Below are positions 8,272 through 38,977 of a stretch of DNA of 57,739 nucleotides, piece after piece. The position numbers were made by a program, and so were the translations under genes. A model generated the notes under the pieces. The model had not been told where the DNA came from, did no database searches, and worked only from the letters and a program-made list of their open reading frames with translations. Source of the stretch: a virus (lineage: Duplodnaviria > Caudoviricetes); IMG/VR virus record IMGVR_UViG_3300011115_000454, positions 1 through 57,739 of that record; one strand, written 5' to 3'. Every line of letters begins with the position of its first letter. Position 1 is the first letter of the stretch.

Positions 8272-9303
8272 ATGTCAACAATAACCGCAGCAGCAGCCTA
8301 CCCCCTAAATGGCGGTGGCTCACCAGCTTTTTATAGCCCAGCAGGTTCAGCCGCTTACTCCGGCACAGCCTATTCTGGTTCATTCATCCCTGCCCTCTGG
8401 TCTGGAAAACTAGCTCAGAAATTCTATGCAGCCACCGTGTTTGGCGAAATTGCTAATACCGACTGGCAAGGTGACATCACCGGCATGGGCGACACTGTGA
8501 TTATCAATACGATTCCAACAATCACAATTAACAGTTACAGCATTGGTCAAAACTTGGCTTATGAAGTTCCTGCTCCTAGCACCATTTCTTTGGTTATTAA
8601 CAAAGGTAAATACTTTGGTGTAAACGTCAACAACGTTCTTGAACTGCAAGCAAAGCCTAAATTGATGGACATGTTCACCAATGACGCTGCTATGCAAATG
8701 AAGATTCAGATTGACAAAGACATTCTGTATTCAAACTTTAACCAAGGCGATTCAGCTAACCTCGGCGCTACAGCCGGTGCGATTTCTGGTTCATTCAATT
8801 TAGGTATTGATACAGCCCCAATCACATTGACTGCTTCTAACATTCTTCAAAGCATCACAGCTTTGTCAAGCGTGTTGGACGAAGCCAACGTTCCTGAAAC
8901 TGACCGCTGGTTAATCATTACTCCTACAGAACGTCAAATTCTGATGCAATCTAACCTTGCACAAGCTCAGTTCATGGGCGACGCTTCTAGCGTATTGCGC
9001 AATGGCAAGATTGGCGTGATTGACCGTTTCACAGTTTATGTTTCTAACCTTGTGCCACGTGCCGCAGTTGGTAAGAGCTACATGAACCCCAATACAGCTA
9101 CTGATTCTTCTGTGTCAAACGCACTCAAGCGTCATGCTGTTATCGCTGGTCATAAGTCTGCCATTACTTTTGCATCACAAATTGCTAAAGTTGAATCTTT
9201 ACAAAACCCCAATGACTTCGGTACATTGGTTCGTGGTTTGAATGTTTACGGCACTCAAGTTGCACAAGCTAAAGGCTTGGCTCTCTTGCAAGTCGCAGGC
9301 TAA
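8272..9303 (+). CDS. major capsid protein
   Basis: FIPALWSGKL, GDTVII, LDEANVPETDRW and RGLNVYG motifs of HK97-fold podoviral capsids. Confidence 0.88.
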   Translation: MSTITAAAAYPLNGGGSPAFYSPAGSAAYSGTAYSGSFIPALWSGKLAQKFYAATVFGEIANTDWQGDITGMGDTVIINTIPTITINSYSIGQNLAYEVPAPSTISLVINKGKYFGVNVNNVLELQAKPKLMDMFTNDAAMQMKIQIDKDILYSNFNQGDSANLGATAGAISGSFNLGIDTAPITLTASNILQSITALSSVLDEANVPETDRWLIITPTERQILMQSNLAQAQFMGDASSVLRNGKIGVIDRFTVYVSNLVPRAAVGKSYMNPNTATDSSVSNALKRHAVIAGHKSAITFASQIAKVESLQNPNDFGTLVRGLNVYGTQVAQAKGLALLQVAG

Positions 9304-25436: not shown

Positions 25437-27278
25437 ATGCCATTTATCAAACTTGAAAATTTTTCGGGTATTTCCCCCCGCACTGGCCCAACTTTGCTTG
25501 AAGCAAATCAAGCGCAAACTGCAAACAATTTAAAAATTCAATCAGGGGAATTACGCCCTTGGCGTCAACCTGTACTTTCGTATGTGACATCTAATACGAC
25601 AAATACACAAACTATTTACAAACTTCAAAATACAAATACTGGCTCGTATGTTTGGCTTGAATGGACTGTTGACGTGGATGTAGTCGCCAGCCCTGTAGCT
25701 GATTCAACTGATTATCGTATTTACTACACTAACGGCACAGCACCAAAGAAAACTAATTGGAATTTAGCCACAACTAGTGAAACAGGCGTAAAACCATTTC
25801 CCGATACAGAATACAACATGGGGGTTCCTTCTCCTACAGCAGCTCCAACGCTTACTAAAGTTGGTGGCTCTGGAACTATTCATGAAGACAGAGTGTATGT
25901 ATATACATACATTAGCACATTTGGGGCAGTTCTTGAAGAATCTGCTCCTAGCCCGCCAACAACTATTGTTTCAGTTGAGCCTAATGCTTCTGTAACAGTT
26001 AGTGCGTTTAGTACTGCTCCTACAACATCGGCTGGGTACAACATTACTGCCATCAGAATTTACAGGTCAGTATCTAGCGGTACAACGGCTAACTATTTGT
26101 ATGTAGGTACAGTAACTGTTACCCCTTCTACGGGTGCGGCGTCCGGTTCTTTTTCTGATGCGGTGTTAGCAGCCAACCTTGGAATTGCAATTCCATCACT
26201 TTATTACACACCTCCGCCTGCTGGTTTAAAAGGGCTTGTGTCTATGCCAAACGGAATATTGGCGGGATTTCAAAATAACGAAGTATGGTTTTGCGAACCG
26301 TATTTACCGCATGCGTGGCCTGTTAGCTACATGTTGACGGTTAATGCCCCTATAGTTGGGCTTGGTGTGTTCGGGCAAACCCTAGTAGTGTGTACATCAA
26401 AAAGTCCGTTTTTAATTACCGGTAGTCAACCAGGGGCAATGACTCAAGAACGGCTTTCCATACCCGAACCTTGTGTGTCTAAAAAATCAATTGTTAGCGA
26501 CCAGTTTGGTGTTTTGTATGCCAGCCCCAACGGGCTTGTATCTTTATCCCCCGGAACGCAAGACGTTATTAGCAGGGCTTTGTTTACTCGAGATGAGTGG
26601 CAAACTTATATACCGACTACTTTTGTATCGGCTATATATCAAAACATGTATATTGCTTTTTACACCATAGGGGCTACTGTAAAAGCCTTGATATTAACTA
26701 GAGGTGATAACCCCCCATTAATAACACTTGACACAGGGGCGCAGGCTGTTTTTGTTGAGCGCACAACAGCAAACGTATATGTTGTTAGTCCTACCGATGG
26801 TTATATTTACCAACTTGACGCAGACCCAGTAAATAATTTGTTTTTTGAATGGAAATCAAAGAAGTTTGTTTTACCCGAACCCACTAATTTTGGCATTGCA
26901 AAAATGCAAGCAGACTGGGAATACATTTCCAGTACCACGGCGTACAATGCTCATGTTGCCGAAATTGTTGCAGCCAATCAAGCACTTTGGGCTCTTGGCG
27001 GGTCTTTAAAAAGCACTCTTAACAGGGCTTTACTTAATGGTTTATTATTAAACGGAAGTACTTTAGAACCCATTCCAAACATAGCTGAGACTAGAAACGT
27101 ACAGGCTTTATTAATTGCGGATTATGTGGACATTTATAGTACTGGATTTACATCCCAAGAACCAGCTCGGTTACCTTCCAGCAAAAAAGGCTATGTGTGG
27201 GAAATCAAATTAACCGGAAATGCGCCAATACGGTCTTTTAAAATGGCTACATCTGTGGGGGAATTAAAACAAATATGA
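25437..27278 (+). CDS. tail nozzle / stabilisation-type protein
   Basis: FSGISPR start; FCEPYLPHAWP; YASPNGLV; WKSKKF; precedes the ejection genes. Confidence 0.7.
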   Translation: MPFIKLENFSGISPRTGPTLLEANQAQTANNLKIQSGELRPWRQPVLSYVTSNTTNTQTIYKLQNTNTGSYVWLEWTVDVDVVASPVADSTDYRIYYTNGTAPKKTNWNLATTSETGVKPFPDTEYNMGVPSPTAAPTLTKVGGSGTIHEDRVYVYTYISTFGAVLEESAPSPPTTIVSVEPNASVTVSAFSTAPTTSAGYNITAIRIYRSVSSGTTANYLYVGTVTVTPSTGAASGSFSDAVLAANLGIAIPSLYYTPPPAGLKGLVSMPNGILAGFQNNEVWFCEPYLPHAWPVSYMLTVNAPIVGLGVFGQTLVVCTSKSPFLITGSQPGAMTQERLSIPEPCVSKKSIVSDQFGVLYASPNGLVSLSPGTQDVISRALFTRDEWQTYIPTTFVSAIYQNMYIAFYTIGATVKALILTRGDNPPLITLDTGAQAVFVERTTANVYVVSPTDGYIYQLDADPVNNLFFEWKSKKFVLPEPTNFGIAKMQADWEYISSTTAYNAHVAEIVAANQALWALGGSLKSTLNRALLNGLLLNGSTLEPIPNIAETRNVQALLIADYVDIYSTGFTSQEPARLPSSKKGYVWEIKLTGNAPIRSFKMATSVGELKQI

Positions 27279-27489: not shown

Positions 27490-27915
27490 ATGAAGTCAAT
27501 TGTTTACGGTCAAGACGAAAGAGTAATGAAATGGGTTGGTGAACGGTTAGACGAGACAGATTTTGGGCCAGGTAGCATAGCTATAGGTTTGGAGCGGGAT
27601 GGTGAGTTGATTGCTGGTGTGGTGTATAACATGTATTCAAAGGCGTCAATTTGTATGAATGTTGCGGCAGTTCCAGGTAAAGATTGGTTGTCAAGGTCGT
27701 TTCTATACGCAACTTTTGCGTATCCTTTTGTCCAACTTAAATGTAACCGAGTAACAGCACTGGTAAAAATGAACAACGAAATCTCTAAAAAGTTTGTACA
27801 AAGTTTAGGATGGAAACCGGAAGGTTGTATGCGCAAAGCATCTACTGATGGACAAGATATGTTAGTTTATGGCATGCTCCGTGAGGAATGCCGTTGGATT
27901 GGAGTTAAACCATGA
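27490..27915 (+). CDS. GNAT-fold protein (podoviral gp13-like position)
   Basis: FAYPFVQLKCNRV...N..S.K....LGW..EG..R...YGMLREEC. Confidence 0.75.
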   Translation: MKSIVYGQDERVMKWVGERLDETDFGPGSIAIGLERDGELIAGVVYNMYSKASICMNVAAVPGKDWLSRSFLYATFAYPFVQLKCNRVTALVKMNNEISKKFVQSLGWKPEGCMRKASTDGQDMLVYGMLREECRWIGVKP

Positions 27916-29027
27916 GAATGCATGATTTTGAAATGCTGCCAGAATTGGCGTTTCAACGAGGTGAAAAAGGAAGACTTACACGTCTTTGGGGTAAGGGCGG
28001 CGGGTCTGCTCCTGCACCAGACCCTAATATTGGATTAGCGCAAAAACAACTTGCGGATTTGTCCAAAGAAGAATGGGATATGTTTAAGACGGATATTTAT
28101 CCAAAGCTGTTAGAAGCGCAAGATAAGCAAGAAAAACGCTCGCAGGGTATGTATGACATTACCACTGCTACTATGAATCAGCAGTTGGAATATGCTAAAA
28201 AAGACAGAGAGCGATACGAAGAAGGCGGCATTCCTGCAATGGAAAAGATTAAAGCCGACGCTGATTTGTATAACAGTGATGACGAACAAGAACGTTTGGC
28301 GGGGCAAGCCAAATCAGATGTAGCCACTGCGTCTCAAAACGCAGCACGAGACCTAGAGATGCGCAATCGTTCTTATGGTATTGACCCAACGTCAGGAACT
28401 GCTATGGGGTTAGGAAATGCTAATTCTATAAATCAATCGCTTATGGAGTCTCAAGCAGTAAATCAAACTCGCAAAGCGGCTAAAGATATTGGTTTGGCTA
28501 AACAAGCTAACGTGTACAACATGTATGCAGGACTTCCTGCCCAAGCCGACACAGCAGTTAAAACTGGCGTAAGTGCTGGTAGTACAGGAGTAGCCGCAGG
28601 TCAGACACAATTTAATAATGCCGCAGCAGCTGGTGATACTTTAGGTAAAGGTGTTGCTCCTGCTATGTCTGGATGGAATAGCGTTGGGCAAATTGGTGTT
28701 GGTAAATACAATGCTGACGTTAGTGCGTACAGTGCTCAACAACAAGCTGAAGGCGCTATGTGGGGCGGAATTGGTTCTATGGTTGGCGTGGGCGCTGGCA
28801 TAGCCTTAAGGTCAGATATAAGAACAAAACAAAATATAAAACATGTAGGTCAGCTAGACAACGGTATTAACTTGTATGAGTTTGAATACAAACCACAATT
28901 CCACAATGAATACGGTTCGCACAGACGTATTGGAGTTATGGCGCATGAAGTAGAACGTGTAATTCCCGAGGCTGTTTTGATTGGCTCAGACGGCTATAAG
29001 ATGGTCAACTATTCAATGGTGGTGTAA
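27912..29027 (+). CDS. ejection/internal virion protein with C-terminal peptidase S74-like chaperone domain
   Basis: GKGGGSAPAPDP after a short leader; SDIRTKQNI...GVMAHEV...PEAV...GYKMVNY. Confidence 0.75.
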   Translation: MRMHDFEMLPELAFQRGEKGRLTRLWGKGGGSAPAPDPNIGLAQKQLADLSKEEWDMFKTDIYPKLLEAQDKQEKRSQGMYDITTATMNQQLEYAKKDRERYEEGGIPAMEKIKADADLYNSDDEQERLAGQAKSDVATASQNAARDLEMRNRSYGIDPTSGTAMGLGNANSINQSLMESQAVNQTRKAAKDIGLAKQANVYNMYAGLPAQADTAVKTGVSAGSTGVAAGQTQFNNAAAAGDTLGKGVAPAMSGWNSVGQIGVGKYNADVSAYSAQQQAEGAMWGGIGSMVGVGAGIALRSDIRTKQNIKHVGQLDNGINLYEFEYKPQFHNEYGSHRRIGVMAHEVERVIPEAVLIGSDGYKMVNYSMVV

Positions 29028-30778: not shown

Positions 30779-33700
30779 ATGCCAAACATTTGGGATTCGT
30801 ACCTAGTAGCAAAACCGGGAGACGATAAAGACCGTTTTTCCGGAGGAACTAATTGGGATGCGTACATAAATCCACCTCCTCCAAATAAACCAGGATTTAT
30901 TTCTGATGTTAAACGAGGTACAGGACAAGTTATTGAGTCTGTAGGTTCTACTCTTAAAGATATTGGCGCTCCAGAAACAGGGGAATCACTTGAGCAGTAT
31001 GGAGCGGGTGTTACTCGACGTAACCCATCACAGATTAATACAGTTGAGGAAGCAATTCGTAATCCATTTACAACATTACGTGAATCTGTAGGTGAGGTTG
31101 TTCCTCAAGTTGGAACTTCTATTGCTGCTGGTATTGGTGGACGAGTTATTGGTGGAGCGCTAGGCGGAATGATTGGTTCGGCTATCCCCGGAGCTGGAAC
31201 TGCTGCTGGCGTTGCTATTGGGCAAAACGTAGGTGCTGGTGCTGCTGCGTATTTAAGCAATTTAGCTCAAGAATATGGCGGCATTCGTAAAGAACAACGT
31301 GACCAAGGTATTGAAGATAAAACCCGTGCTTTAGGTGCTGGTGGGGCTGCTGCTGTACTTGATACAGCGTTTGGTGCAGAAAGAATCGCCAATAAATTTT
31401 TATCTCATGGTTCAGACATTCTTGCTCGTGAAGCCGGTACAAGTTTACGTAAACAAGTAGGTAAACAAACAGCTATTGGGTTTGGTATTGAAGCTGGTAC
31501 TGAAGGAGCGCAAACTCAATTAGAACGATACGGCGCATATAAAGACTTAACTTCCGCAGAAGCAGGTAACGAAGTTGGACTGTCAATGATTAAAGGCGGT
31601 CTAGGCGGCGGCGTTATTCGTGGTGGACTTTCCTCTATAGCTGGGGAACGCCCATCTACTTCTTCCACTGGCGGCGACAGCATGCTTAAAGGTGCTAATA
31701 AAGACCAGTCAATTGGGAGTGAACCAAGCAACGAGATATCACAGACATTCAACCAGACTGCTGCGGGCACAACACCCACTTTATCTGCTTCTATTATGCA
31801 GGGCTTAGTTGGCGGTGCGCCAAACCCATTAGCAGGTCGTGCTCCTTTAATTGAACAGCAACAAGTACCACCTGAGCAACAAGCCCCTGCGCCGTCTGCT
31901 GCGCCATCACCTATCACGCCTCCTGCTGTGTCGGGCGGTACTACACCTATTGCTCAGCAAACCCAACTACAAGCTCAGCAAGAACAACAAGCGCAACAAG
32001 CGCAAGAGCAACAAACCAAACGTGAAGAAACCTTTAACAACCTCGGTGCTCAATTTAATCCCGAGAATGGCGGCGAGTTAACCATCTTTGGTCAAAAAGT
32101 ATTTGGCCCTCAGATTGCACCATTTGGTACAGCGTTATCTTTAAAACTTTCAACCCTTCCACCACACGGATATGAAATAGCCAAGGCTGTGGCGCAAGCC
32201 AACGATACAACTGGCGGAAAAATTGTTAGCTTTACTTACAACGGCGCAAACCCTATAGGTTCTGCTGAAAAATTAACCAAGGCTTTGATAGCCGTCACAG
32301 ATAAGTTTCAGATTGGGCATGTTAATTCTACGCAGGAAGCCGCTCAAATACTTAACAAACTGTCTTCAACAGCAAAAGGCACTCAGCTTGAACAGATTAA
32401 CGCTATTCATCAAGCCTTGACTGGAACCGACACTCAAGGGTATATTGAATCACAAACCACTAAACCGAAAGGAAAGTCAAATGAACAGCAATTGCAAACA
32501 ACTCCCGGGGTGGGAACAGTACCAGTCCAAGGAGGAACAGTCCAAAACAATGATGGACTCACTGGGCTTTTACAGCCCGGAGAAATTCAACCCGTCGGGG
32601 CAGGAGGCGACATTGGAACAGCGATTAGCCAGCAAATTGGACAGCCGTCAGGAGAAGGAATACGGCCTAGCACCAGTGTCACCCCCGACATTTCTGGTGG
32701 TCAGCCAACGACGGGGCAAATAAATTTAACTGCACCTGCGCCAGATACAAACCAATTACTTCGCCAAATTTTTGGAGACACATATGCCATTGACGAAAAC
32801 GTCCCACCAGCAACACGCGGCCCCGCAAAAAGAGTCGTTGGTAAAGTTGAGCAAGTTCGTGTACAACCAGAACAAACCGGAAAACCCGGAGTTTCTGAAT
32901 CAGTTTCAACAGGCGTGGCAGGCGAACGAGTTGTCAAACGCAGACGCAAATGGACTCCAACAAACGCCCCAGCAGCAGGCACAAACCAGTTCTACAGCAC
33001 CGCAGTAGAGCATATCCACCCAACAAAACGGTCAGAAATTATTCTGGCTATTTTTGTAAATGCGTTAGAACCCAAAACTACACGTGGGGATGAATACCCT
33101 GCTGCTGTTCGGGCAAAAATTCTTCAGATGTCTTTGATGGAGCAGATGACCGCTCCTGAGATTTCCAAGTACTTTGCTGAGCTTGAAAATCCAATTGATC
33201 TTAAACCAGGCACTATTGATACGCAACGCAAACGAATGGGTCTTGTGGATAGCCGATCTATTCGTGGGTTGTATATAGACACTACAAGTGAACAAGGCAG
33301 AACTTTGTTGGCAGATGTGGTGCGTGCAGCTGCTGAATTTAAAACAGGTGCTTTTCCTGATGGTATTGGGCCTGACCAATTGCGTGGGTTTTACGCTGCC
33401 AAGAATTCATTTGCCACTGGAAATGAAGTTGTTGAACTTAGCGACGACGTTATTGAAGAACCCACTGCAAAAAATACAGATGTAAAACTACAAGAAGAAC
33501 TGCGCGGGTCAAACAACGAAAACAAAGACACTCGGACTATGGGGGAAATCTCCACGGCTGGTGGTTCTCAAGGTAATGTTGATTCGCTTAAACAAACACG
33601 CAAAAACCTAAAGACTGGAAAAGTATTTAAAGACATCAGTGCGCTTGACCAGATTGAAAAACTGACAGATGAAGCTGACCAGATTCGTGATTCTTTAGAT

Positions 33701-36700
33701 GGCATGGCTCCAAAAGACCCGCGCCGTGCAGCATTGGTTGACAGGCTTGAACAAATTGGTGATGCAGACTCTGGTGAAATTCAAACGCTTTATGAAGAAT
33801 ACAACAAAGCTCAAAAACTGCGTTCCAAAGAAGCTGAAGAAGCTGGCGTAGAGAAAAAGGAAGAAGCTGAAATCACGCCAGAAGAATTGACTGGTGAAGA
33901 ACTTGCCGCTTCTGAGCGGGAAGATGAACGTAAAGCTGAAGCAGCAGAAAAAGCTGCGGCTGATAAAGGAGAAACCGATGCCGTTCAAGTCGAAAGCACA
34001 GATGAAGGAAATGTTCGCAAACCAGCCGGAAGTGGCAAAAAGGTGGGCAAAACTAACACCGAATCCAAAAAGCCTGCCGGAACACGTAAAACCACCACCA
34101 AAAAACCAGTTGAGACCAAGAAGCCGGTCGAGGTAAAAACACCAAAGGAACAATGGGATGAATTACGCACTCTTGCACCTGAATTACCTACGTATGAAAC
34201 TCTCAACCGAGACCAAAAAATTAGGTTTGATGATTTGGCAAACCGTGGACAAGCGAATCTTGCAGCCGTTGTCGGTCAAATTGTTACGGCTCCTAGCACT
34301 GAAATCGTGGCTGAAAAGCGTGAAGCACTGGGCGCTGTTGAAACTACTGAAGAAGTAAAAGAAACACCTCAAGCTGAAGAAACACCTCAAGCTGAAGAAA
34401 TAGTTAAAGAAACTGTTGGTTCTCAAGTAGCCAAACTGCCAGACGCTCAAGTCAAACGTCTTGAAAACCACTACGGTGTTAAGTCAGACTCCTTGGAGTT
34501 CATGACCAAGGTTAAGGAAGACGTAGTCAAGTACGCCACCAAAGGCGCTAACGCAGTAGCCGGAGCCATCCGAGACATTATTAAAGCTATCCATGCTGGT
34601 GTGTTGTCTGTAGCAATGATTTTTAACCCAGTGGCAATAACACCTCCAGAAGCTTTTGTGTTTGTTCCGCAGACGCAGACATATCAGCAAGAAGTCAAAG
34701 CTGAATTACCCAAAGGTACTGAAAACATGTCCCAGGCCGGGAAAGAAGCGTACCAATACATTTACCCTGCAATCAAAGACAAGCTGATTGAAGCCAACAA
34801 ATTCTTTGTTCTTGCCGACAAACCCAATGGGCGCACGTATGTGTTTAATCCTGACGGCTCGCTATTGCTGGAAAGAAAAACTTTGTACGGGGCCGCAGAA
34901 GGTGACTTGCTAATTGGCGATAACAACCTTCCTAAAAATCGAGTGACTCCAGCTGGGTTATTTAACCTTGGTCTGCGGGATGCCGCAAGGGGCGGCGGTG
35001 AAGCTGTTACTGCTGGTGAATACGATTTTGGAAAAGTATTTGTTCTTGACAAAGCATATGGCGGCGAATTCAGCGGCACAATCATGCACTCGGTTTGGAC
35101 AAAAGAAAAAGACGCTGCTCAACGTCTTGCTGCGTTAAAAAATGAAAAGTCTGGGGACTTCCGTTATTCTTTTGGTTGTATTAACGTAGACAAAGAAACC
35201 TACAGAGACCTCATTACTAACCATTTGAGTCAGATGGATGGTGCCAAGTTGTTTATCGTCCCAGATAATCAAGCCCAAGTGAAAAACTTTATAACTGGCA
35301 ATGTGAAAGGCGATGAACTTGACCGCCTTGGTATTACGCTTAAAACAGAACAGGTAACTGTTCCTGTTAGGTCAGCAACTCAAGTATCTGAAGCAGAACG
35401 TACTGTTTTAGGTAAAGAGGAAAAGTTTGCAAGTCGTAGCAAACCAATGCTGTTTGAAAACATAGCAGACGAACTCAGCGGTATGGAAAAAGCTGAGAAA
35501 GCCCTCAATAATTTGGGCATCTCTAACGCTCTTGACTATGTCAGCGGATGGGAAACTTTTGAGGATGCTTCTGAAAACGCACCTGATGGCTTGTTGGTGT
35601 CTAGAGGTGTTAATAAAGAACGTGCTTCTCAGTATTTTGTTCAAATAAATACAGCATCTACCAAAGGTGACCCTCTATTTGAAGCGCAAGTTGCCATCCA
35701 CGAAATTGGACATGCAGTTGATATGGCCCCCCATGGCGGTATATATTCATCTCAGCCTGAGATGAGTGTGTCTTTACAAGACGGTGTAGTAACGCCAATT
35801 GGTAAAATGTCCAAGGAACTGTTTAGCTTGTATCAAACTGACGATAATTGGGGTGATTTTTTAGCATACCCATTTGATATTAGTGCTTTCCCTGATATAA
35901 AGAATCACATAGAAGTAGAAGGTGAGTTGTTTGCACAGGTATTTGCTGTGTATGCTTCACCTGCAGGTCGTGCTTATATTGAGCAAACCGCCCCCCAAAC
36001 CGCAGCGTTCATGAAGGAAGTTATAAATGACATCAAGTCTTCAAAATCGTTTCAAATCCAAAAGAGCGAAGTATCAGCAGCAAGAACCCTCTCGTTCCGT
36101 AATCGTAACGCCCAAGGGGGTAATAGACAGACAACTCAAGTTCTTGGACTCCCTCCCCGAGGTGCCGCCCCAGAGTCGTTCGCAAGCAGAAGCATACCCT
36201 TCGACCCCGAAACTTTTATAGGTTCATTACCAAAACAAACTCAAAAAGCGGCTCGTACAGTAATAGACGATTTACCCAATGCGCTAAAGAAAGGCTCATT
36301 GGCGTCAGCAATTACAGAAGACGTGATTGGTATGGCTACCAAGTACATGAAATCCGCTCAAGATTATTTGACCGCACAGTACGCACGGCAGGCTTCTAGA
36401 TTGCGCCATGAACTTAAAATTGAAAAAATATTAAGTAGGTTTGATAAACTACCCGAAGAACTCAAAGGCACAGGCGCTAACAGCGTCAATGCGTATATTT
36501 TTGATTCCACAAGGCAAGAGAAGTGGGGCTACTACCCCGGTGAGAAATTTGTCAGCACTAGGCTTTTTGACACTGACCCTGAGTTTAAAAAGCGTTTTAA
36601 TGCGTTCCCACCTGCTGCTAAAAAAGTAATCATGGATGTGTTTGAACACGGACATGACGTGATGGTAGAAAAACAAACCGCAATATCGGATGCCATCAAC

Positions 36701-38977
36701 AAAGAATTTGCTGAGCGTGTAAAGAACGCTCATGGGGATACTGACATCCTTGCTCAGATTGAAAAAGAAAAGAACGTACTGTTGGCTCGTGAGTCCAAGT
36801 TGTTGGGTATGAACATTGACAAGCCTTACTCATACCTAGGACGTTATGGCGACTATGTGACTGTAGCCAAGTCTGCTGAATATAAACAATACGAAGAAAT
36901 ACTTGCAGACAAAGGTGAAGGGTACGAGCAGGCTGTTGGATGGTTAGCAGAGAATCGTTCTAACCCAGTACATTATGTTGTTCAGTTTGCAGAAACCCTT
37001 GGCGAAGCCAAGCAAACAGCCGCTAACCTATCCGCAACGGGCAACTACGACATGCCTGAGGCATTTGAAAAAGAAGCCTATAGAGATGAGGGCGGTGATG
37101 CTTTTTCTGCGCTTGCAAGACTGCGCAATCGTTTTGAACGTGATTACTCAGATGCTGACCCAAAAACTAAAACTCAAGTAAGTAACATGATTGGGGACAT
37201 GTATCTGAACTTAATATCAGAAGCCAGTTCACGTAAATCTTTAATGCAACGTCAAAACATCTCAGGCGCTGATAAAGACATGATGCGTAACTTGGCTACA
37301 CGTGGCCGCTCAGACGCTCACTTTCTTGCCGCTATCAAACACAACGACGACATATCTGACTCCATTAAAAAGATGCGTGTTGAGCGTAACCGCAATCATG
37401 AATCCGCCCAACCGTATTTTAATGAGTTGCTCAAGCGTCATATGAACAGCATGAAGTATGAGTCTCCAAACGTGTTGGCTAACTTTATGTCTCGCTTGTC
37501 TTCAGTGTATTACTTAGCGACCAACCCAGCGTTTTATCTACAGCAGTTGTTACAGACTGGAGTTATATCTCTGCCTTACATGGCTGGTCGTTTAGGTTAC
37601 TTCCGTTCTGCTCGTGCTATTAAGAAAGCATACGGCGACACTATGGAATTGGTTAAAGGTCTTGGAGTAAGTGACCACATTGACTTTAGCAAAGCCCCTG
37701 CTGATGTTCGTGCCATGCTTGACCAATTTGTTGGTATGGGCAAAATTGATATTGGTATTGATTCTGACGCTCGTGTAAGAGCCGGTGACCAAGGTGTTAC
37801 TGCCAAGGTGTTGGGTAAGCTACAAGCTGTTAATAATCGTATTGAATCAATCAACCGTGCTACAGCAGCCATTGCAGCCTATCGCGGATACCTTGAGCGT
37901 TATAAGAACAATGACACTGCCGCCGCTACTAAGTATGCCGCAGAGGTAGTATCGAACACACACGGCTCATATGATGCGTTTAATACACCAAGAATCATGG
38001 AATCAGGCGCAGGTAAAGTGTTGCTTCAGTTCAAGCGGTTTCAAATTATTCAAATCTCCATGCTTGCCAAGTTGTTGCACACAGCGTTCAAGGGTTCCTC
38101 TGCTGAAGAAAAAGCAGTGGCTTTTCGCTCGCTTGGGTTTATAACAGGGCAAATGGCGCTTCTTGGCGGCATGATAGGTGTGCCTCTTGCTCAGCAAGCT
38201 GCGTCTATATTATCTAAAGTGTTTGGGGATGAAGATGAACCCGATGATTGGGAGTTCAAACTGCGCCGTATGATAGACGACCCAGTGGTGGCTGACTTGT
38301 TAATTAATGGGATCCCAGGAGCTATGGGCGTTAACTTAGGCGGTAAGTTGGGTATGGGTAATACATTCTCTATCCTGCCGTTTACTGACGTAGATTTAAC
38401 CAGTCGTTCCGGTGCAGAGAAAGCACTTGTAGGTATTATGGGGCCGTCTGCCAACCTTGCACTTAAATGGGCTGATGGTTTGGGGCTTATGGGTAAAGGC
38501 GAATACTACAAAGGTCTTGAGCAGATGTTGCCAAATGGTGTATCCAACGTATTAAAAGCTGGACGAATTGCCACAGAAGGTGTAACAATGCGCAATGGGG
38601 ATGTAGTGCTCAAGCCTGAGGAAATCAGTTTGTTTGATGCTGCGTTCCAAGCCGTTGGTTTACCAACGACAACCTTAACAGACCGCCAGTACACACAGAA
38701 AGTTGTAGCAGAATTTGATAAATATTACCAAGAACGTGCAAGCGAAATCAAAGGTGATTACATCAAGGCTAGACGAGACAATGCAAACACAAGCGATGCG
38801 ATGAATGAATGGAGCAAACTTCAAGAAGCAAGAACACGCAATGGATATACACGGCAACCAATGTCGGAATTGTTAAAAGCACCGATGGCAGCAACGAAGC
38901 GAGAAAATCGTGTTGCTGGTGGTGTAGAGTTTAATAAAGGTAATCGACGTTTTGTCGAATCAGTAAGTCAACAGTAA
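30779..38977 (+). CDS. giant internal virion/ejection protein (2732 aa) with L,D-transpeptidase-like and zincin-like domains
   Basis: TPAG...IMHSV...SFGCINV motif; HEIGH...GELFAQ motif; last large gene of the virion module. Confidence 0.8.
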   Translation: MPNIWDSYLVAKPGDDKDRFSGGTNWDAYINPPPPNKPGFISDVKRGTGQVIESVGSTLKDIGAPETGESLEQYGAGVTRRNPSQINTVEEAIRNPFTTLRESVGEVVPQVGTSIAAGIGGRVIGGALGGMIGSAIPGAGTAAGVAIGQNVGAGAAAYLSNLAQEYGGIRKEQRDQGIEDKTRALGAGGAAAVLDTAFGAERIANKFLSHGSDILAREAGTSLRKQVGKQTAIGFGIEAGTEGAQTQLERYGAYKDLTSAEAGNEVGLSMIKGGLGGGVIRGGLSSIAGERPSTSSTGGDSMLKGANKDQSIGSEPSNEISQTFNQTAAGTTPTLSASIMQGLVGGAPNPLAGRAPLIEQQQVPPEQQAPAPSAAPSPITPPAVSGGTTPIAQQTQLQAQQEQQAQQAQEQQTKREETFNNLGAQFNPENGGELTIFGQKVFGPQIAPFGTALSLKLSTLPPHGYEIAKAVAQANDTTGGKIVSFTYNGANPIGSAEKLTKALIAVTDKFQIGHVNSTQEAAQILNKLSSTAKGTQLEQINAIHQALTGTDTQGYIESQTTKPKGKSNEQQLQTTPGVGTVPVQGGTVQNNDGLTGLLQPGEIQPVGAGGDIGTAISQQIGQPSGEGIRPSTSVTPDISGGQPTTGQINLTAPAPDTNQLLRQIFGDTYAIDENVPPATRGPAKRVVGKVEQVRVQPEQTGKPGVSESVSTGVAGERVVKRRRKWTPTNAPAAGTNQFYSTAVEHIHPTKRSEIILAIFVNALEPKTTRGDEYPAAVRAKILQMSLMEQMTAPEISKYFAELENPIDLKPGTIDTQRKRMGLVDSRSIRGLYIDTTSEQGRTLLADVVRAAAEFKTGAFPDGIGPDQLRGFYAAKNSFATGNEVVELSDDVIEEPTAKNTDVKLQEELRGSNNENKDTRTMGEISTAGGSQGNVDSLKQTRKNLKTGKVFKDISALDQIEKLTDEADQIRDSLDGMAPKDPRRAALVDRLEQIGDADSGEIQTLYEEYNKAQKLRSKEAEEAGVEKKEEAEITPEELTGEELAASEREDERKAEAAEKAAADKGETDAVQVESTDEGNVRKPAGSGKKVGKTNTESKKPAGTRKTTTKKPVETKKPVEVKTPKEQWDELRTLAPELPTYETLNRDQKIRFDDLANRGQANLAAVVGQIVTAPSTEIVAEKREALGAVETTEEVKETPQAEETPQAEEIVKETVGSQVAKLPDAQVKRLENHYGVKSDSLEFMTKVKEDVVKYATKGANAVAGAIRDIIKAIHAGVLSVAMIFNPVAITPPEAFVFVPQTQTYQQEVKAELPKGTENMSQAGKEAYQYIYPAIKDKLIEANKFFVLADKPNGRTYVFNPDGSLLLERKTLYGAAEGDLLIGDNNLPKNRVTPAGLFNLGLRDAARGGGEAVTAGEYDFGKVFVLDKAYGGEFSGTIMHSVWTKEKDAAQRLAALKNEKSGDFRYSFGCINVDKETYRDLITNHLSQMDGAKLFIVPDNQAQVKNFITGNVKGDELDRLGITLKTEQVTVPVRSATQVSEAERTVLGKEEKFASRSKPMLFENIADELSGMEKAEKALNNLGISNALDYVSGWETFEDASENAPDGLLVSRGVNKERASQYFVQINTASTKGDPLFEAQVAIHEIGHAVDMAPHGGIYSSQPEMSVSLQDGVVTPIGKMSKELFSLYQTDDNWGDFLAYPFDISAFPDIKNHIEVEGELFAQVFAVYASPAGRAYIEQTAPQTAAFMKEVINDIKSSKSFQIQKSEVSAARTLSFRNRNAQGGNRQTTQVLGLPPRGAAPESFASRSIPFDPETFIGSLPKQTQKAARTVIDDLPNALKKGSLASAITEDVIGMATKYMKSAQDYLTAQYARQASRLRHELKIEKILSRFDKLPEELKGTGANSVNAYIFDSTRQEKWGYYPGEKFVSTRLFDTDPEFKKRFNAFPPAAKKVIMDVFEHGHDVMVEKQTAISDAINKEFAERVKNAHGDTDILAQIEKEKNVLLARESKLLGMNIDKPYSYLGRYGDYVTVAKSAEYKQYEEILADKGEGYEQAVGWLAENRSNPVHYVVQFAETLGEAKQTAANLSATGNYDMPEAFEKEAYRDEGGDAFSALARLRNRFERDYSDADPKTKTQVSNMIGDMYLNLISEASSRKSLMQRQNISGADKDMMRNLATRGRSDAHFLAAIKHNDDISDSIKKMRVERNRNHESAQPYFNELLKRHMNSMKYESPNVLANFMSRLSSVYYLATNPAFYLQQLLQTGVISLPYMAGRLGYFRSARAIKKAYGDTMELVKGLGVSDHIDFSKAPADVRAMLDQFVGMGKIDIGIDSDARVRAGDQGVTAKVLGKLQAVNNRIESINRATAAIAAYRGYLERYKNNDTAAATKYAAEVVSNTHGSYDAFNTPRIMESGAGKVLLQFKRFQIIQISMLAKLLHTAFKGSSAEEKAVAFRSLGFITGQMALLGGMIGVPLAQQAASILSKVFGDEDEPDDWEFKLRRMIDDPVVADLLINGIPGAMGVNLGGKLGMGNTFSILPFTDVDLTSRSGAEKALVGIMGPSANLALKWADGLGLMGKGEYYKGLEQMLPNGVSNVLKAGRIATEGVTMRNGDVVLKPEEISLFDAAFQAVGLPTTTLTDRQYTQKVVAEFDKYYQERASEIKGDYIKARRDNANTSDAMNEWSKLQEARTRNGYTRQPMSELLKAPMAATKRENRVAGGVEFNKGNRRFVESVSQQ
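33978..34136 (+). CDS. nested small basic protein MPFKSKAQ... (52 aa) in the +1 frame of the giant gene
   Basis: AAGGAG SD 6 nt before the ATG; resembles stand-alone phage MPFKSKAQ..A..PE.AKRW...TP..K.LPE.V proteins (recalled). Confidence 0.6.
   Translation: MPFKSKAQMKEMFANQPEVAKRWAKLTPNPKSLPEHVKPPPKNQLRPRSRSR

Follow-up and report, generated by a model that had tools for sequence, protein, structure and literature searches.

A probable small gene embedded out of frame in a giant ejection-type gene

The DNA analyzed in this work, referred to as the window, is the complete 57,739-bp virus record IMGVR_UViG_3300011115_000454 (Duplodnaviria; Caudoviricetes), which has direct terminal repeats. 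At positions 33978–34136 it very probably contains a genuine protein-coding gene that is embedded out of frame in a giant ejection-type gene and is translated on its own. Read from the window sequence, the open reading frame (ORF) extends on the plus strand from an ATG (33978–33980) to a TAA (34134–34136), encodes 52 amino acids (aa) beginning with MPFKSKAQ, and starts 6 nt after AAGGAG, a Shine-Dalgarno (SD)-like sequence. It is in the +1 frame relative to the 2732-aa ORF at 30779–38977 ((33978 − 30779) mod 3 = 1), which is uninterrupted over the small ORF and is translated there as KGETDAVQVESTDEGNVRKPAGSG. This arrangement had been pointed out in an initial annotation of the window, and the AAGGAG, the 6-nt spacer, the ATG, the peptide (identical in sequence), and the openness of the giant frame were all confirmed. 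The span given at that time, 33965–34136, has the right stop but begins one base before the SD-like sequence, and the ORF proper occupies 33978–34136. The main features of the locus are as follows:

30779–38977, plus strand: host gene, encoding a 2732-aa giant protein of internal-virion or ejection type (from the ORF, its position, and PHROG matches)
33966–33971, plus strand: SD-like AAGGAG, separated by the spacer 33972–33977 (6 nt) from the ATG
33978–34136, plus strand: probable embedded small gene of 52 codons and a stop, +1 relative to the giant frame
33978–34085, plus strand: conserved core, codons 1–36, with the MPFxSxxQ N-terminus, predicted helices at residues 6–15 and 17–26, and then the TP..KSLPE motif
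34086–34133, plus strand: variable Pro- and Arg/Lys-rich tail, predicted to be disordered (from the alignment, predicted local distance difference test (pLDDT) values, and substitution phase)

With 13 Lys/Arg residues versus 3 Asp/Glu residues, the 52-aa peptide has a net charge of about +10; it lacks cysteine and any hydrophobic segment, its maximum 11-residue Kyte-Doolittle (KD) mean being −0.63. The +1 frame is already open from a GTG at 33894, which gives an 80-aa extended ORF. This extension is not kept in relatives, in whose embedded loci the open stretch 5′ of the ATG is 18–96 nt. Because 61 ORFs of at least 40 aa in the six frames overlap the span of the giant gene, the length of the 52-aa ORF is by itself not above chance; its homology is.

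The small protein belongs to a large unnamed phage family

In a protein search against 5.8 billion clustered proteins, the 52-aa peptide yielded 63 candidates, with 47 called small proteins of 42–89 aa at E ≤ 0.01 (the best E value was 1.3e-16). The alignment of family members (A1), in which the window peptide itself is one of the 44 rows, has eight invariant columns (M1, P2, F3, S5, Q8, A20, L33, and P34), all of which are found in the window peptide, and the core is followed by a Lys-rich variable tail that differs in length and sequence among homologues. The window peptide matches the A1 profile with an E value of 5.5e-26, though it is itself an A1 row. When this profile was searched against 1.84 billion representatives (50% clustering), 3678 cluster representatives were matched at E ≤ 1e-3 and 752 at E ≤ 1e-10, and 357 IMG/VR loci were confirmed by tblastn. 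In 138 of the 150 best profile representatives the module begins at residues 1–3, and the lengths are 51–1163 aa. The sole library family that was matched is phrog_1375 (PHROGs v4, no function), with E values of 0.0028 for residues 3–28 of the 52-aa peptide, 0.00033 for the 80-aa extended ORF, and 1.8e-06 for the fused protein of locus L077. Judged from these matches, the window peptide is a member of a phage family that overlaps phrog_1375 and that, with its 3678 representatives at 50% clustering, is large and yet without any name.

Pfam searches with all 44 family members gave scattered chance-level matches only (best E = 0.033), and the look-up in the ESM Atlas returned unnamed clusters of ~50 aa only. 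The nearest named ESM Atlas cluster has a score of 0.84, below the lead threshold of 0.9, and 15% of its members carry DUF3008 (PF11450), a family whose N-terminus is of the K-S-K-x-Q type. Membership in DUF3008 was rejected: the peptide is without a Pfam match at E ≤ 10, and 0/44 family members match DUF3008 at E ≤ 1. In a blastn search with the 2 kb around the ORF, no match was found among 50,697 phage records, and the literature search gave no match to 'MPFKSKAQ'. A weak relative (E = 7e-3 over 27 residues) is gene 48 of Streptomyces phage FlowerPower (L083, 4001–4219), which encodes a 72-aa hypothetical protein and is located between a small 'peptidase' gene and a holin gene, unlike the head-module neighbourhoods elsewhere.

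Separate, fused, and embedded layouts among relatives

The layout of the gene was surveyed in 83 sources, comprising the window and 82 loci (the best 80 of the 357 IMG/VR loci and two GenBank phages from tblastn). ATG is the first codon in all of them. The gene is free-standing and encodes 41–69 aa in 54/83 sources, in agreement with the resemblance to free-standing phage genes that the initial annotation had noted. In another 11/83 it forms the in-frame N-terminal module of a longer protein (seven of 192–198 aa, the others of 187, 214, 1024, and 1344 aa), and in 16/83 it lies inside an open frame of >4 kb. All 16 of these embedded copies are in the +1 frame of the large frame and none is in the other frame; each has the ATG start and no stop, and the interruption in relatives that had been raised as a counter-indication was thus seen in none of the 16. 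The embedded gene starts 23–48% along the complete giants. Two identical copies (L038 and L039), for which the host open frame is 2103 nt with an odd Cys/Ser-rich translation, were placed in neither the embedded nor the free-standing count.

The family has one match in the window genome and one in each of five other records searched. This conserved, probably protein-coding gene is invisible to standard annotation, and it is the sole copy of the window phage. In L001 and L002 the embedded copies are unannotated in GenBank, and a single annotated feature, the coding sequence (CDS) of the giant 'structural protein', covers the match in each of the 40 rows listed (39 Flavobacterium elemovirus records and MW202828.1), as the initial annotation had expected of standard gene callers. 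Cultured elemoviruses offer a system for testing the function of the small protein. The copies in L001 (6001–6132; MW202828.1) and in the Flavobacterium elemoviruses (L002, 6001–6129) represent a variant that has two cysteines and an insertion of 2 residues (..KACY....WDCKKW..), which may form a disulfide- or metal-stabilised hairpin.

Free-standing copies are found in head modules, upstream of the major head protein gene in L030 and upstream of the portal gene in L028. In several free-standing loci (for example L018, L020, L029, L033, and L081), the upstream stop codon ends on the first base of the ATG of the small gene, and this abutment suggests translational coupling with the preceding structural gene. 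In L035, where the small gene is at 8735, a 403-aa upstream ORF (−1108 to +103) overlaps the small gene by 103 nt. This ORF uses the same relative frame as the giants, an intermediate, 'overlapped' layout. L026 contains a 1979-aa ORF (−9855 to −3916 from the small gene) that is C-terminally homologous to the L045 giant (E = 3.4e-16); the giant-type protein and the free-standing small gene are ~4 kb apart in one module, possibly an unfused state. When the large neighbours of free-standing copies were compared with the giants using phmmer, this link between the L026 protein and the C-terminus of the L045 giant was the sole one, so the flanks of free-standing copies could not be shown to be unfused halves of the giant of the window. 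In a tree built from 70 distinct cores of 42 residues, 5 changes are needed to account for the embedded state, and the well-supported branches force only 1 (shuffled mean 14.6; 0/500 shuffles as low).

Substitution patterns follow the frame of the small gene

Conservation of the frames was compared over the first 35 codons in the 14 embedded copies whose alignment is gap-free (91 pairs). Mean pairwise identity was 0.759 for DNA, 0.777 for the +1 peptide, 0.532 for the frame of the giant, and 0.513 for the unused third frame, so the comparison of +1 and frame-0 conservation that the initial annotation had proposed came out in favor of the +1 frame. Nucleotide identity was 0.819, 0.838, and 0.620 at the first, second, and third codon positions of the small gene, respectively; the most variable nucleotide is the third codon position of the small gene, which is the first of the giant. 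This pattern shows purifying selection on the embedded frame.

The whole giant was also scanned against eight homologous giants for mismatches per codon position in 25-codon windows, with no coverage at about aa 1540–1800. The ordinary coding phase, with most variation at position 3, holds nearly everywhere in the giant, including the stretches that flank the small gene on either side. Position 1 exceeds position 3 in three places only. At aa 1071–1115 the reversal comprises three contiguous windows that correspond to the MPFKSKAQ gene, at aa 561–655 it comprises eight contiguous windows, and at aa 21–45 it is one marginal window with two homologues. The substitution phase tracks the small frame at nt ~33980–34070. 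From nt ~34070, under the tail, it is back in the frame of the giant (0.38–0.39 for position 1 and 0.52–0.63 for position 3). This simple scan picked up both the MPFKSKAQ gene and a second candidate embedded gene in the same host (described below), which suggests systematic screening of giant phage genes for embedded genes.

The giant-type frame has a stop in 0/16 embedded copies versus 39/61 distinct non-embedded copies, so the peptide alone does not force that frame open. Openness appears to be the sole visible constraint on the frame-0 residues over the small gene, where the giant looks like a tolerant linker. The suggestion that both frames are under selection is therefore correct only in the weak sense that frame 0 must stay free of stops; otherwise its residues look unconstrained.

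The giants of nine loci (L003–L010 and L025) are homologous to the giant of the window. Neither tblastn nor BLASTP shows similarity to it in the giants of L001, L002, L011, L012, L042, and L045; among the pairs listed, their matches to other giants cover the overlapped stretch, and the only longer match is between L001 and L002 (868–1019), which begins at the overlapped stretch. L002 is a cultured Flavobacterium phage, and the L045 giant carries an internal-virion-protein domain. The small embedded gene is thus better conserved than its host, and for this reason it provides a landmark for homology among giant virion proteins that have otherwise diverged beyond recognition.

Initiation signals of the small gene

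An SD core, defined as GGAG, GAGG, or AGGA at −16 to −4, precedes the ATG in 11/16 embedded copies against an expectation of 1.2 calculated over every position of those giants, and the ATG itself is present in 16/16, in line with the conservation of both signals that the initial annotation had asked about. Among the five copies without an SD core, four have low-GC giants (32–40%), one of them being the Flavobacterium phage, and the fifth has GGGGA. Bacteroidota are known not to depend on SD sequences. In the embedded loci a +1-frame stop is located 18–96 nt upstream of the ATG, with no conserved sequence between them. The small gene appears to carry its own translation-initiation signals, and from the selection pattern we conclude that it is probably translated by internal initiation on the late mRNA of the giant gene.

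Origin and possible function

In the mechanism that we propose, ribosomes would enter the giant mRNA internally, at the AAGGAG that precedes the ATG by 6 nt, and make the small protein from there, as for Rz1 inside Rz. The small gene would be the older partner, and the giant frame would have come to read across it through fusion or read-through of flanking virion-protein genes. Between the two alternatives of the initial annotation, absorption of a once-separate gene by the giant fits best, because the small family is far wider spread than any giant lineage and the frame-0 residues look unconstrained. The overlap would then have an unusual direction, with an old structured small gene apparently overlaid by a young disordered linker of the giant. 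In-frame fusion at that place would be precluded, as the module apparently needs a free N-terminus, given its start at residues 1–3 in nearly all of the best representatives. Such a need would explain why the module is always N-terminal and stays in its own frame under the giant.

The product would be a small, strongly basic protein of the virion interior, synthesized alongside the internal virion proteins. The N-terminal helical hairpin would provide docking to a conserved component of the head, portal, or ejection complex, with the Lys/Arg/Pro tail in contact with DNA or an acidic surface. We put forward this function, a virion-interior docking or DNA-contacting protein for which the free N-terminus is important, as a tentative possibility. 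The AlphaFold2 (AF2) model, obtained with the 44-row alignment, has two short helices (residues 6–15 and 17–26) and a disordered tail, with a mean pLDDT of 74 and values of 53–66 over residues 31–52. Fused relatives have Ala/Gly-rich, moderately hydrophobic extensions; GxxxGxxxG was found in 20/54 of these extensions and moderately hydrophobic segments (KD ≥ 1.2) in 24/54, counts that lack a control and are a hint only. The extensions are reminiscent of the Gly-rich segments in the N-terminus of the giant, likewise without a control. Searches of Pfam and PHROGs with five fused proteins from the loci gave only sub-threshold coiled-coil-type matches (192-aa form) and phrog_1375 (L077).

Several points weigh against the reading of the ORF as an embedded gene for a virion-interior protein. 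The case for translation comes from sequence evidence, and no promoter- or terminator-like sites were found at 33500–34400, so expression would depend on the transcript of the giant gene. The similarity to phrog_1375 is of borderline significance and covers part of the profile (positions 17–42 of 70), no Pfam family was found for the 52-aa peptide even at E ≤ 10, and the source-given names in ten clusters are all 'hypothetical protein'. As the 80 loci are the best-scoring of 357 against the peptide of the window, the embedded share is inflated; moreover, the 16 embedded cases are not independent, with 9 in the clade of the window, and the 42-residue core is too short to tell one origin of embedding from several. 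The functional part is based on gene neighbourhood and composition. No structural match was obtained, with 0 Foldseek matches in the PDB at E ≤ 10, and the single row from VIA-align against 48,161 chains (Z = 2.1) is meaningless. Among the 20 fused relatives, 18 are without a Pfam domain and the other two have DUF5661 and GGDEF_2, and a phmmer comparison of 54 fused extensions with all ORFs of the window gave 0 matches.

The product could instead be non-structural, a late small regulator or chaperone whose dose is tied to the giant mRNA, acting in the assembly or solubility of the giant protein or as a nucleic-acid-binding regulator. Its small size, its charge, and the helical hairpin suit nucleic-acid or protein binding in general, embedding ensures co-transcription with the giant gene, and the FlowerPower relative, weak as the match is, adjoins a holin gene and not head genes. 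Against this, in-frame fusion to the N-terminus of long Ala/Gly-rich proteins better suits a docking or targeting module, and free-standing copies are located within head modules. We regard a regulator or chaperone as rather unlikely.

A reading in which the ORF merely rides along with a conserved frame-0 motif of the giant (D/N-A-V-Q-V-E-S-x-D-E-G-N-V-R), or is a relic that was absorbed and is no longer translated, is very unlikely. Such a motif does recur over the first ~14 codons of frame 0, the ORF is not long enough to stand out from chance, and the evidence for expression is indirect. However, the +1 peptide is far more conserved than frame 0, whose identity is the same as that of the third frame, and the variability peak is at the first codon position of the host. 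Free-standing genes encode the same peptide even where the giant-type frame has stops, the ATG and the full-length ORF are kept in 16/16 embedded copies including lineages with unalignable giants, and the embedded copy is the only one in 6/6 records searched.

Programmed frameshifting is extremely unlikely, both as a +1 shift that would yield a truncated giant ending in the peptide and as a −1 shift in the A-rich tail that would join the module to the C-terminal ~1600 aa. The latter route would recreate the fused layout (elsewhere the module heads proteins of 980–1344 aa), and an in-phase heptamer, A_AAA_AAC, occurs at codon 42 in the window, with in-phase X_XXY_YYZ heptamers in 7/16 embedded versus 6/50 free-standing copies, but 9/16 embedded copies have none and the seven are all in the clade of the window at positions that are not conserved. 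A conserved in-phase slippery heptamer, as a programmed site requires, was thus not found. For the +1 route, nothing is conserved between the upstream +1-frame stop and the ATG. A shift site needs neither the ATG (83/83 sources) nor the SD core (11/16), and the giant is read in a single frame, with normal coding phase in both of its halves, so it needs no shift.

Taking the embedded gene as a separately translated small protein, a broader and doubtful extension is that giant ejection genes are read-through mosaics of neighbouring virion genes, in which small genes that had lain between these neighbours persist under the linkers as functional out-of-frame passengers. The seams would be marked by the MPFKSKAQ gene and by the second candidate embedded gene ~1.5 kb upstream. 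MPFKSKAQ would then be an ancient docking adaptor with a free N-terminus, loading the head with ejection proteins or with the DNA end, and would be kept separate, fused, or embedded. A bolder form of this extension, in which a −1 shift after the embedded start would yield, besides the small protein, a product of the module and the C-terminal half, is extremely unlikely.

Comparison with known overlapping genes

The closest known kind appears to be the embedded out-of-frame gene pair of the Rz1-in-Rz type. According to PMC6139136, Rz/Rz1 spanin pairs occur embedded, overlapped, and separated in different phages, embedded Rz1 occupies DNA that also codes for a genetically flexible linker of the host, and 196 o-spanins were not identified by annotation. 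As described for Rz/Rz1 of phage lambda, the small gene of the window lies wholly within a larger gene on the same strand, in its +1 frame and with its own ribosome-binding site; a flexible host linker over the small gene, multiple layouts, and frequent omission from annotation are also common to both. The two are unrelated in sequence, the host in the window is a giant virion or ejection protein gene and not a lysis gene, and the MPFKSKAQ family has a fourth layout, the in-frame N-terminal fusion. The same paper reports that spanin families with embedded members had none in any other layout, whereas one MPFKSKAQ family spans embedded, partly overlapped (L035), separated, and fused forms. An o-spanin (Rz1-like lipoprotein) was ruled out for the peptide itself, which lacks a signal peptide and, being free of cysteine, also a lipobox. 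The phrog_1375 entry gives no indication of members embedded within other genes. In the titles and abstracts covered by the literature search, nothing was found on embedded genes in giant virion or ejection genes.

Overprinted genes likewise yield two proteins from one stretch of DNA, one of them compositionally biased and disordered-looking. General reviews of the topic are PMC8227390 and PMC3494269. In the window the direction appears to be reversed, with the small, structured, and widespread gene looking ancestral and the disordered linker of the giant looking novel. Genes E and K of phiX174 are de novo overprinted genes of a small virus. Unlike that size-limited microvirus, the host genome here is that of a 58-kb dsDNA phage.

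The proposed docking role has a parallel in short terminal modules that bring proteins into the head interior. T4 internal proteins have N-terminal capsid-targeting sequences, and the P22 scaffolding protein has a C-terminal basic helix-turn-helix domain that binds coat protein and, like the predicted MPFKSKAQ core, is a small basic helical hairpin. This would be a functional analogy only, a hypothesis on mechanism, and the P22 domain is C-terminal whereas the MPFKSKAQ module is N-terminal.

Other +1-frame ORFs and the genomic context of the giant gene

Further features of the giant gene and the genes that precede it are:

32481–32723, plus strand: second candidate embedded gene, 80 aa in the +1 frame, preceded at a distance of 7 nt by AAGGAA (from phase reversal and conservation)
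36027–36221, plus strand: 64-aa +1 ORF, so far unsupported as an embedded gene
25437–27278: internal virion protein gene, phrog_511, preceding the giant gene
27912–29027: internal virion protein gene, phrog_8003 and phrog_4287 ('DNA ejection protein'), preceding the giant gene

The ORF at 32481–32723, ~1.5 kb upstream of the MPFKSKAQ gene, is confirmed at the level of sequence as a second embedded gene. Its location at host aa 561–655 is the only other region in which position 1 firmly exceeds position 3, its peptide (starting at ATG 32481) is found in 9/9 homologous giants with 53–76% identity, and it has 25 called homologues of 51–99 aa; a Pfam search with the peptide gave no family match. 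For the ORF at 36027–36221, which falls outside the coverage of the codon-phase scan, tblastn of the +1 and frame-0 peptides against the 83 loci gave nothing convincing (best E = 0.25–0.28).

The genome has a podovirus-like layout, in which terminase, portal, major head protein, and tail fibre genes are followed by the internal virion protein genes and then by the giant gene. The C-terminal ~600 aa of the giant match phrog_10089 (E = 6.5e-54), phrog_11358, and phrog_30335, which are PHROGs of giant virion proteins. The gene block and the profile similarity together indicate that the giant is probably an internal virion or ejection-type protein. Two weaker matches were noted along its length. 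Within residues ~1335–1500 (window ~34780–35275), residues 1407–1479 weakly match phrog_38499 (E = 0.032), while a Pfam scan of the entire giant at E ≤ 0.01 yielded no match to YkuD (L,D-transpeptidase). Residues 1620–1747 (window 35636–36019) have a sub-threshold Pfam match, around a HEIGH motif, to the ATLF zinc-metallopeptidase family (E = 1e-4; 22.5 bits versus a cut-off of 27.4).

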